A stretch of 42,871 nt of DNA, taken from the NCBI GenBank assembly GCA_964450565.1, contig CAYVCP010000001.1:15073-57943 (forward strand). Reading direction: 5' to 3'. The notes below the pieces were generated by a model. That model saw only the letters and a list, made by a program, of their open reading frames with translations. It had not been told where the DNA came from and ran no database searches. Both the position numbers and the translations under genes were made by a program. Each line of letters opens with the position of its first letter. Position 1 is the first letter of the stretch. Source of the stretch: an uncultured Candidatus Saccharibacteria bacterium. Lineage in GTDB: Bacteria; Patescibacteriota; Minisyncoccia; Minisyncoccales; CG1-02-41-26. Below are positions 183-33,307 of the stretch, in pieces.

Positions 183-1142
183 ATGAAAAAAAAGATATTT
201 ATTACAGGTATAGCTGGATTTATTGGCTCTCATTTAGCTGAGTATTGTTTACATAAAGGAGCTCTTGTTTCGGGTACTATTTTAGAAAAAGAAGATACAA
301 AAAATATTGATAACATCAAAGATCAAGTCAGTCTTTTTAAATGCGATTTGACCAATAAAAAAAGAACGAAGCAAGTTTTAGGAGAAATTAAGCCAGACAT
401 TATATTTCATTTAGCAGGACAAAGTTCCATTGCTCTTTCTTTTAAACATCCAGACAAAACATTATTGGTTAATATCTTTTCAACACTTAACATTTTAGAA
501 TCTTCCAAAGAATTAAATATAAATCCCATAATTCAAATTGCAGGTTCTGCAGCAGAGTATGGTTTAATAAAAAAAGAAGAATTACCAATTAAGGAAAACG
601 TTCCTTTAGTCCCCTTATCTCCTTATGCTGTTTCTAAGGTTACTCAAGAAATGTTGGCTTTACAGTATTATAAAACAAATGATTCTAAAATTATTATAAC
701 AAGATTTTTTAATATTGAAGGTGCAAGGAAAGATCATTCTGCTGTTTCTTCTTTTGCTCAACAAATTGCTTTAATTGAAAAAGGAAACAAAGCAGAAATC
801 TGTGTTGGCAATTTAGATGCTATCCGTGATTTTGTGGATATTGATGATTTAATAAAAGCTTTGTGGGTTTGTGTAGTAAAATGTGATTTTGGAGAAAGTT
901 ATAATATCGGAACAGGAAGGGGATATAAAATAAGAGATGTGTTAGACATGCTAATATCGTTATCTAAAAATAGAGATATTCAGATTAAACAAACCGAAGA
1001 AAGAATAAGGTCAAATGATGTGCCTGTTCTTATCTCTGATTCTACAAAATTTAAAAAAAAGACAGACTGGATACCAAAAACTGGTTTAAAAACAACATTA
1101 AAAAAGGTGCTAAATCATTATAGATATGAGACAAAAGATTAA
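183..1142 (+). CDS. rmd: NAD(P)-dependent SDR epimerase/dehydratase, most like GDP-4-dehydro-6-deoxy-D-mannose reductase (Rmd-like)
   Basis: N-terminal Rossmann motif ITGIAGFIGSHL and catalytic SPYAVSK (YxxxK). The HLAGQ, RFFNIEG and GNLDAIRDFVDIDD blocks parallel Rmd as I recall it. A gmd gene lies 2 kb downstream in the same operon. Confidence 0.55.
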   Translation: MKKKIFITGIAGFIGSHLAEYCLHKGALVSGTILEKEDTKNIDNIKDQVSLFKCDLTNKKRTKQVLGEIKPDIIFHLAGQSSIALSFKHPDKTLLVNIFSTLNILESSKELNINPIIQIAGSAAEYGLIKKEELPIKENVPLVPLSPYAVSKVTQEMLALQYYKTNDSKIIITRFFNIEGARKDHSAVSSFAQQIALIEKGNKAEICVGNLDAIRDFVDIDDLIKALWVCVVKCDFGESYNIGTGRGYKIRDVLDMLISLSKNRDIQIKQTEERIRSNDVPVLISDSTKFKKKTDWIPKTGLKTTLKKVLNHYRYETKD

Positions 1143-19931: not shown

Positions 19932-20291
19932 ATGCCTATGTCCATACAAGTATTTGTTAATGAATTTAAAAATAAAAAAATGAATTCAAAGAAGATAGAA
20001 AAAGAAATAACGAAGTTAATGCAGGATGAAGATGTAACAAAAGAATCTGGCATTTACCCATATGTTTTGACTAGACAAGAAAAATATCTAAATATTCGAG
20101 TATTTACCGATAAAATGAAACGAGAAGCATATGAGAGGCAAAAAGGTATTTGCCCAAGATGTAAGGAACGTTTTGAAATAGAAGAAATGGAAGCAGATCA
20201 TATAAAGCCTTGGCACGAAGGTGGAAAAACAATAGATAAAAATTGTCAAATGTTATGCAAAGAGTGTAATAGAAGAAAATCTGGAAAATAA
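19932..20291 (+). CDS. small stand-alone HNH endonuclease-domain protein
   Basis: C-terminal CPRCKERFEIEEMEADHIKPWHEGGKTIDKNCQMLCKECNRRK, i.e. CxxC...DH...N...CxxCN HNH. The start could be ATG 19932, 19938 or 19980. Confidence 0.7.
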   Translation: MPMSIQVFVNEFKNKKMNSKKIEKEITKLMQDEDVTKESGIYPYVLTRQEKYLNIRVFTDKMKREAYERQKGICPRCKERFEIEEMEADHIKPWHEGGKTIDKNCQMLCKECNRRKSGK

Positions 20292-20323
20292 AACTTAAAA
20301 GATTATTGGTAGAATTTAAGTTG

Positions 20324-20364
20324 TGTAAAGATACCTGTCAATTTGCTTGACAGGTATCTTTACA
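20324..20364 (+). terminator. perfect 18-bp inverted repeat (5-nt loop); candidate intrinsic terminator of the HNH gene and/or operator
   Basis: TGTAAAGATACCTGTCAA (20324-20341), loop TTTGC, TTGACAGGTATCTTTACA (20347-20364). Followed by only a short TTT run. Confidence 0.45.
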
Positions 20365-20375
20365 TTTGCTACGAT
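20347..20375 (+). promoter_or_regulatory. candidate sigma-70-type promoter for the XRE/Panacea operon
   Basis: TTGACA (20347-20352), a 17-nt spacer, then TACGAT (20370-20375). The -35 lies inside the right arm of the palindrome. Confidence 0.4.
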
Positions 20376-20443
20376 AGAAACGTGGCTAATAATTTTGAAA
20401 AAATAACGTGGGATATGTTAGAAAAATTATATAAAAAATAATT

Positions 20444-21220
20444 ATGATTACATTTTTAAAAAAACTTCGCCAAGAAAACGATGTGAGCCAAGGATTTTTG
20501 GCAAAAAAAATAGGTGTATCCCGTCCGACTTATGCGCAGATTGAAAGCGGTGCGCGAGACATATCTGTAAAAGAAGCGCAAAAATTAGCCCGATTTTTTG
20601 GATTGTCTTTAGAAAATTTTCTTGCTGGTAAAAAAACACCGGAGTCAAAAGTAGAATTGGAGAAAACAAAAAAGAAAAAAATACAAAAAATTGAACCTCG
20701 TGATTCAGTACCTCAGGAAAAAGTAGAAAAATTCAAAGAAGTACTTTTGTATATTTTGGAAAAAATAGGTGCGCGTCCAAATGTCGGCGAAGCTGTCGTG
20801 TGTAAATTAATGTATTTTATTGACTTTGATTATTATGAAAAATTTGAGGAACAATTAATTGGGGCTAAATATATAAAAAATCATTTTGGACCAACCCCTG
20901 TTGCTTTTCCTGAGATTATTGCGCAAATGGAACAAAATGGTGATTTGACACGTGTTACAAAAAAATATTTTCAACACGATCAAAAAAAATATTTACCACG
21001 CAGATTTGCCGACCTTTCGAATTTTTCAGCTAGAGAAAAAGAATTAATTGATTGGGAAATTGAACGATTTAAGGAGTTTAACGCTACAAAGATGCGTAAT
21101 TATTCACACAAAGATGTTCCGTGGATTGGTGCTGACGATCTACAACCGATTAACTATGAAGCGGTTTTTTCTCGTACCGATGAATTTTCCGTAAGACAAT
21201 ACGATGATGAACTATTATGA
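20444..21220 (+). CDS. XRE-family HTH protein fused to a Panacea (DUF4065/SocA-like) domain; putative PanA-type antitoxin
   Basis: N-terminal LRQENDVSQGFLAKKIGVSRPTYAQIESGARDISVKEAQKLARFFG (HTH_3). C-terminal VVCKLMYFIDFDYYEKFEEQLIGAKYIKNHFGPTPVAFPEII resembles DUF4065. Confidence 0.65.
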   Translation: MITFLKKLRQENDVSQGFLAKKIGVSRPTYAQIESGARDISVKEAQKLARFFGLSLENFLAGKKTPESKVELEKTKKKKIQKIEPRDSVPQEKVEKFKEVLLYILEKIGARPNVGEAVVCKLMYFIDFDYYEKFEEQLIGAKYIKNHFGPTPVAFPEIIAQMEQNGDLTRVTKKYFQHDQKKYLPRRFADLSNFSAREKELIDWEIERFKEFNATKMRNYSHKDVPWIGADDLQPINYEAVFSRTDEFSVRQYDDELL

Positions 21221-21569
21221 AACAGAAGAATTTACACGTGATTTTAAAAAACTGCTGAAGAAATTTTCATCATTGGCGGAAGACTTAGAAGTGAACAAGC
21301 AATATCGGATTGAGCTTTTTCATTGTAAGGGGATAGATAGTAAGGGTATTATTGAAATTCAAGGAGTTGGCAATACAACGGAGCTTAAATTTTTTAAAGT
21401 TAAAAAATTTCAATGTAAAGACTTAAAAGGTCGTGGAGCAAAAAGTGGCATTCGTGTTATTTATGCTTATTTTCCTGTTGAACAAAAAATAGTGTTTATA
21501 GAAATATATTTTAAAGCAAATCAAAACAACGAGAACAAACAAAGAATTATTAATTTTATAAATACATAA
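21204..21569 (+). CDS. RelE/ParE-superfamily (HigB/Gp49-like) toxin candidate
   Basis: 121 aa. The C-terminal core GIRVIYAYFPVEQKIVFIEIYFKANQ is typical of RelE/ParE-fold toxins. Overlaps the upstream antitoxin-like gene by 17 nt. Confidence 0.55.
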   Translation: MMNYYETEEFTRDFKKLLKKFSSLAEDLEVNKQYRIELFHCKGIDSKGIIEIQGVGNTTELKFFKVKKFQCKDLKGRGAKSGIRVIYAYFPVEQKIVFIEIYFKANQNNENKQRIINFINT

Positions 21570-21572
21570 TTT

Positions 21573-22154
21573 ATGAATATAGAATACGAAGCAACATTTT
21601 TAAACATTAATAAAGATGTTATACGGGAGAAGTTGAAAAACATTAATGCTAAATTAGTTAAAGCTGAATATTTACAAAAGCGAGTTGTTTTTAATTTACC
21701 AAAAAATATAGATGGAGCACATAAATGGGTTAGAGTAAGAGATGAGGGGGATAAAATTACGATGAGTTTGAAAGATGTCGATGCTGGAAAAATAGAAAAC
21801 CAAAAAGAGGTTTGTTTAAGGGTGGGCGATTTCAAGAACGCTGTGGATCTATTAGAATTAAGTGGGTTTCATAAAAAAGCGTATCAGGAGAATAAGAGAG
21901 AAAAATGGCTATGTGATGAGTGCGAGATAGATATTGACGAATGGCCATTTTTAGAACCATATATAGAAATTGAGTCAACAAGTGAGCAGTTAGTAAAAGA
22001 TATGGCTCAAAAATTAGGATTTGATTACTCTAAAGCATTGTTCTGTTCTACAACCACTATTTATGCTAAAAAATATAATATATCGGATGATATTATAAAC
22101 AACCAAACACCAAAAATAATTTTCAATATGGAAAATCCGTTTTTGAGAAGATAA
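21573..22154 (+). CDS. CYTH-domain protein (class IV adenylyl cyclase / triphosphate tunnel metalloenzyme family)
   Basis: N-terminal IEYEATF (ExExK-like), WVRVRDEGDKITMSLKD, ENQKEVCLRV, REKWLCDECEIDIDEWPFLEPYIEIES. This follows the CYTH beta-strand pattern. The start is 4 nt after the toxin stop. Confidence 0.55.
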   Translation: MNIEYEATFLNINKDVIREKLKNINAKLVKAEYLQKRVVFNLPKNIDGAHKWVRVRDEGDKITMSLKDVDAGKIENQKEVCLRVGDFKNAVDLLELSGFHKKAYQENKREKWLCDECEIDIDEWPFLEPYIEIESTSEQLVKDMAQKLGFDYSKALFCSTTTIYAKKYNISDDIINNQTPKIIFNMENPFLRR

Positions 22155-32428: not shown

Positions 32429-33307
32429 ATGTTTTTAAAGAAAAGAAAAACTTTTTATTTCATTTCTATAGTACTTTCTTTAGCAAGTATATTATCTATT
32501 TTATTCTATGGTTTAAATTTAGGTATTGATTTTACTGGAGGAAGCATTATGGAATTTGAATATAGTAAAGCTCCTTTAGTAGAAGAAGTAAAAAATGTTT
32601 TACCAGAGATTGGAGAGTATACTTTACAGAAAAAAGGAGACAATGGTTTTATTCTAAGGACAGGAGAGATTACAGAGCAAACACATCAAGATATCGTTGT
32701 TGTTTTAAAGTCACTTGGTGAGTTTATAGAAGAAACTGAAAGTTTTCAAAATATTGGTCCTGTTATAGGAAGAGAATTAAAATCAAAAACAAAGATTGTT
32801 ATTATTTTATCTTTGTTGTGTATTCTATTATACATCGCTATTTCTTTTAGAAAGATATCAAGACCTGTAAAATCTTATATCTATGGCATTACTTCTTTAA
32901 TAGCCCTATTCCATGATGTTTTGATCCCTCTGGGTGTTTTTTCTGTTCTAGGGAAGTATTATGGTGTTGAATTAACTATACCTATCATCACAGCTTTTTT
33001 AACTGTCTTTGGGTATTCTATTAATGATTCTGTCGTTGTTTTTGACAGAGTAAGAGAAAATCTATTAAAATTGAAAACAAACGATTTTAATGAAGCTGTT
33101 GAAATAAGTTTAAAACAAAGTATCAGGAGATCTTTAAATACATCATTCACTACCTTAATAGCATTACTATCTATTTTTCTTTTTGGTGGCGAAACCTTAA
33201 AATTCTTTTCTTTTGCTTTGATTCTGGGAATTGGACTGGGAACATACTCTTCTTTATTTTTAGCAACCCCTCTTTTGGTTAGTTATTATAAGTTAAGAAA
33301 TAAATAA
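32429..33307 (+). CDS. secF: protein-export membrane protein SecF
   Basis: LGIDFTGGSIMEF, HDVLIPLGVFSVLG, GYSINDSVVVFDRVREN. Directly follows secD. Confidence 0.9.
   Translation: MFLKKRKTFYFISIVLSLASILSILFYGLNLGIDFTGGSIMEFEYSKAPLVEEVKNVLPEIGEYTLQKKGDNGFILRTGEITEQTHQDIVVVLKSLGEFIEETESFQNIGPVIGRELKSKTKIVIILSLLCILLYIAISFRKISRPVKSYIYGITSLIALFHDVLIPLGVFSVLGKYYGVELTIPIITAFLTVFGYSINDSVVVFDRVRENLLKLKTNDFNEAVEISLKQSIRRSLNTSFTTLIALLSIFLFGGETLKFFSFALILGIGLGTYSSLFLATPLLVSYYKLRNK

Follow-up and report, generated by a model that had tools for sequence, protein, structure and literature searches.

Here we describe panA-panT, a toxin-antitoxin (TA) gene pair in a 42.9-kb window of contig CAYVCP010000001.1 (by the window we mean the whole stretch of DNA analysed, 42,871 nt), which belongs to a genome of the reduced candidate phyla radiation (CPR) type, 544.5 kb in size and 96.8% complete. 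The analysis supports a well-preserved, mobile PanAT cassette with a HigB2-like toxin of the RelE fold, within PanAT cluster T14, which Kurata et al. 2022 (PMC8832971; PNAS 119:e2102212119) have already listed. The cassette is also probably autoregulated, to judge from a conserved palindrome at its promoter. With T14 already listed computationally, the pair is no new kind of system. What is gained is that a family without a curated model now has an assigned fold, a candidate regulatory site, and catalytic residues and a target that are probable, and that cluster T14 is extended into the CPR/Patescibacteria, where minimal genomes carry such TA pairs and appear to exchange them.

An earlier reading of this DNA, made from the letters alone (the sequence-only reading), had proposed a PanAT-type module in a reduced CPR-like genome. 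Both proposals are supported, the first by the PF13274 match of the antitoxin, the RelE/ParE-superfamily fold of the toxin and the coupling of the toxin to a helix-turn-helix (HTH)-Panacea gene in 44 of 46 loci, and the second by the genome size and the Patescibacteria labels on close homologues. The two open reading frames (ORFs) of 258 and 121 aa, said to overlap by 17 nt, do so at 21204-21220, where GATGATGAACTATTATGA is read in two frames. One Panacea gene and one toxin gene are present in the genome, and panA-panT is among the few accessory cassettes kept intact in its 0.54 Mb. As a compact, conserved and well-defined pair, it is a convenient candidate for studying Panacea neutralisation of a RelE-fold ribonuclease (RNase).

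Pairing of toxin and antitoxin across genomes

With the single PanT protein as query, 46 related loci were found in species-representative genomes. A close set of 21 loci, at 73-92% identity, comes from Patescibacteria-type metagenome-assembled genomes (MAGs), and a distant set of 25, at 39-60% identity, from Bacteroidota, Saganbacteria, Margulisiibacteriota, Aminicenantes and Actinomycetota. An HTH-Panacea gene lies immediately upstream of the toxin and on the same strand in 44 of the 46 loci, which span at least five phyla, with a spacing of -17 to +17 nt when likely start codons are used. The partner ORFs are 239-329 aa long and mostly 255-295 aa, the 239-aa example being cut by the end of its contig, and both HTH_3 and PF13274 are present in all 32 partners that were scanned. 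Toxin and antitoxin diverge in parallel in the distant set (39-49% and 39-47% identity, respectively), and the flanking genes vary from locus to locus.

Truncated or frameshifted toxin genes were also seen at four places (L022:3001-3362, L024:1803-2093, L049:2799-3056 and G010:C10:12307-12387; L denotes a locus, G a genome and C a contig). The antitoxin is still intact upstream of the broken toxin in L022, L049 and G010 C10, and L024 has no upstream antitoxin ORF. Broken toxins beside intact antitoxins are typical of TA decay, in which the toxin is lost first.

Fold, active site and family of the toxin

PanT has 629 close relatives in a 90%-clustered database, nearly all of them 75-89% identical and from Patescibacteria MAGs, and its family comprises 456 clusters at 50% identity, in which most records are annotated "hypothetical protein". 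As a single sequence it matches PHROG 5869, a group of unknown function (E 5e-7), and gives a weak match to Vibrio cholerae HigB2 (VcHigB2) in the PDB (E 0.38). A profile of 85 family sequences improves the VcHigB2 match to E 2e-4 over residues 68-114. In the underlying alignment F10, L17, D27, K65, G78, G82, R84, E100, Y102 and K104 are near-invariant.

The AlphaFold2 model of PanT has a pLDDT (predicted local distance difference test score) of 96.8 and a pTM (predicted template modelling score) of 0.90, and its elements follow the order beta-alpha-alpha-beta-beta-beta-beta-alpha: strand 3-6, helices 8-20 and 24-42, strands 49-51, 62-66, 83-90 and 95-103, and helix 112-120. These elements fit the RelE/ParE fold, in which an initial strand and a hairpin of two helices are followed by an antiparallel sheet and a final helix. 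In a Foldseek search of the PDB, HigB2 (E 3.9e-4) and archaeal RelE (aRelE; E 7.2e-4) were the best matches, followed by Escherichia coli RelE (EcRelE), YafQ, YoeB, HigB, HP0892/HP0894 and Cami1; the top 50 consist of 46 RelE-type RNases and four chains of one ParE-like entry.

The active site of VcHigB2 was defined by mutagenesis as R51, R64, Y82 and K84 (Hadzi et al. 2017, PMC5416850). Three of these residues, R64, Y82 and K84, align by HMMER with R84, Y102 and K104 of PanT, each of which is kept in at least 90% of the 85 sequences. Because of this fold and these near-invariant residues we take PanT to be an mRNA endonuclease that depends on the ribosome, as RelE and HigB2 do, an assignment that we hold to be likely.

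RelE and ParE share one fold, and a toxin of this shape could instead be a ParE-type poison of DNA gyrase. PfiT, a ParE-like toxin (9w3a), stands at ranks 14-18 of the Foldseek results, and ParE is among the PanT domains of Kurata et al. 2022 (PMC8832971). PanT nevertheless finds its best matches, in sequence as in structure, among RNases (HigB2, aRelE, EcRelE, YafQ and YoeB), the HigB2 RNase residues are kept, and the Pfam ParE_toxin model matches none of the 85 family members, all of which makes a gyrase poison very unlikely.

Assignment to PanAT cluster T14

PanAT modules were defined by Kurata et al. 2022 (PMC8832971), who list 343 PanAs with an N-terminal HTH and have RelE/ParE-like toxin clusters among the PanTs. 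One row of Dataset S1 describes Pedobacter ginsenosidimutans KACC 14530, with the HTH-PanA WP_083505562.1 and the toxin WP_057935310.1, placed in cluster pT15/T14 with the order A|T and a 2-nt gap, and the HHpred annotation given for T14 is "Toxin HigB-2 (99.73%)". One of our distant loci, L044, comes from the same strain and has the same architecture and the same 2-nt gap; it was matched to these accessions by such features and not by sequence. Since L044 corresponds to the pT15/T14 row, the family was already catalogued computationally. The sequence-only reading had left both the toxin subfamily and its target unassigned. On the evidence of that row this holds only in part, as the subfamily matches pT15/T14 and is HigB-2-like by HHpred. 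Neither Patescibacteria nor Parcubacteria is mentioned in the portion of the supplement examined.

Domains of the antitoxin

The architecture suspected for the 258-aa protein, an HTH_3 domain followed by a Lys/Glu linker and DUF4065, was confirmed by Pfam matches, with the linker predicted to be disordered. HTH_3 covers residues 5-57 (E 5.9e-16), and the hidden Markov model (HMM) search with SocA_Panacea (PF13274, formerly DUF4065) found residues 120-227 at E 1.6e-16 and 61.6 bits, well above the gathering cut-off of 25.7. The AlphaFold2 model, built with 32 homologues, has a mean pLDDT of 81.6 and consists of a five-helix XRE domain (1-60), a linker with pLDDT below 50 (66-89), a well-folded alpha/beta Panacea domain (approximately 94-245) and an extended tail at the end. 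By sequence and fold, the HTH is likened to those of controller proteins, SinR, HipB, PezA and HigA. A sequence search turned up no solved Panacea structure, and Foldseek returned only HTH domains and, weakly, the DarG chain of Mycobacterium tuberculosis DarTG (7yk3).

The Panacea region (residues 76-212) weakly resembles the C-terminal part of DarG, with which that antitoxin binds DarT, both in the NCBIfam model NF048014 (E 0.0019, model positions 150-279) and in chains B and D of 7yk3 (154 columns, template modelling (TM) score 0.35-0.50). The resemblance is a hint that Panacea has a fold related to that of DarG's toxin-binding domain.

Beyond the end of the Pfam domain, I236, Y238, E239, F242, R244, S249, V250, R251 and Y253 are invariant or nearly so across phyla, and residues 244-258 have no secondary structure in the model. 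As a hypothesis, the C-terminal tail is a candidate toxin-binding element. According to Ernits et al. 2023 (PMC10440598), a stand-alone Panacea domain can bind toxins directly, and multidomain PanAs neutralise through other elements (PAD1, Phd-C and ZBD), with Panacea as a possible sensor.

Promoter and candidate operator

Upstream of panA, at a distance of 80-120 nt, lies a perfect inverted repeat with arms at 20324-20341 and 20347-20364 (Table 1). The -35 hexamer TTGACA opens the right arm, and the promoter to which it belongs matches the consensus at 10 of 12 positions, with the TG of an extended -10 present. In seven aligned loci the 60-nt block of palindrome and promoter is almost invariant, and the sequence diverges on either side of it. 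In 14 of 20 close loci the core of the candidate operator is present with up to two mismatches, lying 31-156 nt ahead of the antitoxin ORF; the remaining close loci retain the right half-site and the promoter. Elsewhere, only four matches occur across those close loci and the whole window.

At the equivalent position the Bacteroidota-type clade has a different palindrome, TGTTTTA-N3-TAAAACA, in 14 of 23 loci; it is exactly repeated upstream of the antitoxin gene in L029, L032, L040, L041, L042 and L044. Operator and HTH appear, from these sequence comparisons, to have changed together between the clades. Because the conserved palindrome holds the -35 hexamer and the distant clade has another palindrome at the corresponding site, the arrangement suggests that the palindrome would serve as operator of the XRE domain and that PanA may repress its own operon.

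The 5' leader (20376-20443) has two AACGTGG boxes. It is variable in length and not conserved in the other cassettes, and for this reason the boxes are unlikely to be functional.

Mobility and selection

DNA homology to other cassettes, at 77-88% nucleotide identity by blastn, is confined to about 20300-21573, a stretch bounded by the promoter and the stop codon of panT. The distribution of the family is patchy, with 10 of 41 related genera carrying it. In one genus of the same family as the window's genome (G022), PanA is 88% and PanT 84% identical to the window's proteins, at a SecA identity of 63-64%; in a second (G010) the values are 82% and 80%, at a SecA identity of 69%. Other genera of that family carry pairs from different subclades, with PanA at 51-57% and PanT at 39-51% identity. 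Since the identities of PanA and PanT are out of step with that of SecA, and other subclades occur in other genera of the family, the pair does not follow the species tree, and the cassette appears on these comparisons to have been exchanged between genera. No tRNA gene was found near the cassette, and no compositional anomaly around it. Against 17 close copies, panA has a median ratio of nonsynonymous to synonymous substitution rates (dN/dS) of 0.084 and panT one of 0.10, with dS at 0.7-1.8; this indicates strong purifying selection on both genes and transfers that are not very recent.

The G010 genome (0.7 Mb) contains two HTH-Panacea pairs of different subclades, whose antitoxins are 82% and 57% identical to the window's, as well as two short Panacea proteins without an HTH (G010 contigs C107, C10, C14 and C112). 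Panacea antitoxins therefore diversify even inside minimal genomes.

Conservation of this degree (80-90% amino-acid identity across genera, dN/dS of approximately 0.1) is unusually high for a TA pair, and the cassette is single-copy in a minimal genome. Both features would suit a domesticated regulator, in which an HTH-Panacea transcription factor works with a small, non-toxic co-regulator and the genes have ceased to be a TA pair. Such a regulator is hard to reconcile with the near-invariance of the RNase catalytic residues in PanT, with an operator that is found only at the pair's own promoter (the sole other near-match in the window, with one mismatch, is at 33030), and with a patchy, mobile distribution in which decayed toxins lie beside intact antitoxins (L022 and L049), as is typical of TA dynamics. 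We consider it the least credible of the alternatives and highly improbable.

Features of the locus and neighbouring genes

The features of the locus are collected in Table 1.

Table 1. Features of the panA-panT locus, in window coordinates (PanA parts in residues)
Feature	Position	Strand	Description
panA antitoxin ORF, 258 aa	20444..21220	+	ORF call and domain matches
PanA parts	residues 1-60; 66-89; ~94-245; 244-254		XRE-type HTH; disordered Lys/Glu linker; Panacea; conserved C-terminal tail
panT toxin, 121 aa	21204..21569	+	RelE/ParE-superfamily fold, nearest VcHigB2; near-invariant K65, R84, E100, Y102, K104
Transferable cassette	20300..21573	+	blastn borders; flanks unrelated
Probable operator	20324..20364	+	perfect inverted repeat with 18-nt arms, TGTAAAGATACCTGTCAA-N5-TTGACAGGTATCTTTACA; core CTGTCA-N7-TGACAG
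Sigma-70-type promoter	20347..20375	+	-35 TTGACA 20347-20352; 17-nt spacer; extended -10 TGcTACGAT 20367-20375

Downstream, a CYTH/CyaB-like gene (21573-22154; Pfam CYTH, E 1.7e-10) starts 4 nt past the toxin stop codon. We rejected it as a third component, since every other locus has a different gene downstream; it was not beside the cassette in any other locus examined and is a chance neighbour.

Directly upstream of the cassette is a stand-alone HNH nuclease gene of 119 aa (19932-20291; Pfam HNH, E 5.8e-14). Its product matches the PADLOC type II restriction endonuclease (REase) model PDLC03418 at E 1.5e-38, over the C-terminal third of the model only (260-372 of 372). A degraded 3' end of this gene was also found upstream of the cassettes of two other loci, clearly in L011 and more weakly in L009. 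Window positions 20182-20291 align with L011 from its position 426, in an alignment with an overall identity of 84%, and the HNH ORF is broken there. To judge from these remnants, the HNH gene apparently moved along with the TA cassette in some lineages.

The HNH gene and its remnants bear on a further possibility, that the pair serves primarily in abortive infection against phages, with Panacea sensing a phage cue and releasing or activating the RelE-like effector, and addiction being secondary. Ernits et al. 2023 (PMC10440598) favour Panacea as a sensor where a PanA has several domains, the cassette adjoins a gene that resembles a type II REase C-terminus, with HNH remnants beside cassettes elsewhere, and purifying selection on the cassette is strong in 0.5-Mb genomes. 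PADLOC, on the other hand, gave no match for the toxin and only generic HTH matches for the antitoxin, and no defence-island context recurs among the 46 loci. We regard a primary anti-phage role as unlikely, if less so than the other alternatives weighed above.

A more far-reaching reading, which we think somewhat less probable still and offer as speculation, is that selection actively maintains the Patescibacteria cassette in ultra-small episymbionts for defence or addiction. The globular Panacea domain would then sense a phage or host cue and the invariant tail I236-Y253 (IxYExxFxRxxxxSVRxY) would neutralise the toxin. If so, the tail would be a previously undescribed neutralising element for RelE-fold toxins, and the cassette would open a first way into the question of how, with an RNase as toxin, Panacea links sensing to release.

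Proposed mechanism

The reading that we favour, and hold with good confidence, is a self-contained, horizontally mobile type II TA cassette of the PanAT class, approximately 1.25 kb long, that would work in four steps. A sigma-70-type promoter would drive a bicistronic panA-panT message, in which the observed 17-nt overlap may couple translation of the toxin to that of the antitoxin. Free PanT, as an endoribonuclease of the RelE family resembling VcHigB2, would enter the ribosomal A site, cleave the mRNA under translation and arrest growth, with catalysis attributed, on the basis of fold and conserved residues, to R84, Y102 and K104 together with the beta3 lysines K65/K67/K68. PanA is predicted to bind and neutralise PanT by way of Panacea, the strongly conserved C-terminal tail, or both. 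Finally, a dimer of the XRE HTH would bind the palindrome with 18-nt arms that holds the -35 hexamer and repress the operon, as the conserved position of the palindrome suggests. Loss or degradation of PanA, or a trigger sensed by Panacea, would then release the toxin, leading to addiction to the cassette and possibly to abortive infection.

Several observations weigh against this reading. As a single sequence, PanT matches no model in Pfam, NCBIfam or PADLOC, curated RelE/ParE models included, and PF06296 is touched by just three of the 85 family members, at E about 0.005 or weaker; the PanT family is therefore effectively uncovered by curated models. The TM-scores of the PanT Foldseek matches are modest (0.5-0.66). 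R51 of VcHigB2 aligns with Q70, a variable position of PanT; the conserved K65/K67/K68, which are placed on the same strand, may stand in for it. Cluster pT15/T14 is marked "notest" in Dataset S1 (PMC8832971), and in multidomain PanAs it is often an element other than the Panacea domain that neutralises the toxin (Ernits et al. 2023, PMC10440598). Also, no toxin relative was found among IMG/VR viral contigs by pattern search, or among GenBank phages and PLSDB plasmids by tblastn, and a phage or plasmid vehicle is for that reason unsupported. The RelE/ParE-type core that the sequence-only reading had recognised in the 121-aa protein was thus without a match in curated models, but it is supported by the family profile, the AlphaFold2 model and Foldseek.

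Comparison with known systems

The nearest known relative is the pT15/T14 pair of Pedobacter, which has the same HTH and Panacea antitoxin, the same antitoxin-first order and a toxin of the same family, 42% identical to PanT (tblastn E 2e-20). The Patescibacteria clade differs from it in being only approximately 40-49% identical to the Bacteroidota members and in having its own palindrome, CTGTCA-N7-TGACAG.

Both the closest solved structure and the closest profile match to PanT are those of V. cholerae HigB2 (PDB 5JA8/5JA9/8A0X; PF06296). Besides R64, Y82 and K84, the two proteins share a similar Gly/Lys-rich beta2-beta3 loop (KGKGKRGGSR against KGRGAKSGIR). Their identity is only approximately 20%, however, PanT falls short of the threshold of PF06296, and the position that aligns with R51 is not conserved. 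Furthermore, in higBA2 the toxin gene comes first, and HigA2, which lacks Panacea, neutralises through a disordered N-terminus and carries its HTH at the C-terminus.

In the SocAB system of Caulobacter crescentus, the founder of Pfam SocA_Panacea, the antitoxin has the same Panacea/DUF4065 domain. SocB reportedly targets the DNA polymerase sliding clamp, whereas PanT has a RelE fold; SocA is said to act as a ClpXP adaptor for its toxin and, again reportedly, has no HTH.

E. coli RelBE and archaeal aRelBE (PDB 4FXE, 1WMI and 4V7K) share with PanT the toxin fold and probably a catalytic strategy of basic residues and tyrosine. In these systems, too, the antitoxin gene comes first and the operon is autoregulated at an operator in its promoter, an arrangement that panA-panT resembles, with autoregulation probable in its case. 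The antitoxins differ: RelB is small, of the ribbon-helix-helix type, and neutralises through a disordered segment at its C-terminus, whereas PanA, at 258 aa, combines an XRE-type HTH with a globular Panacea domain.

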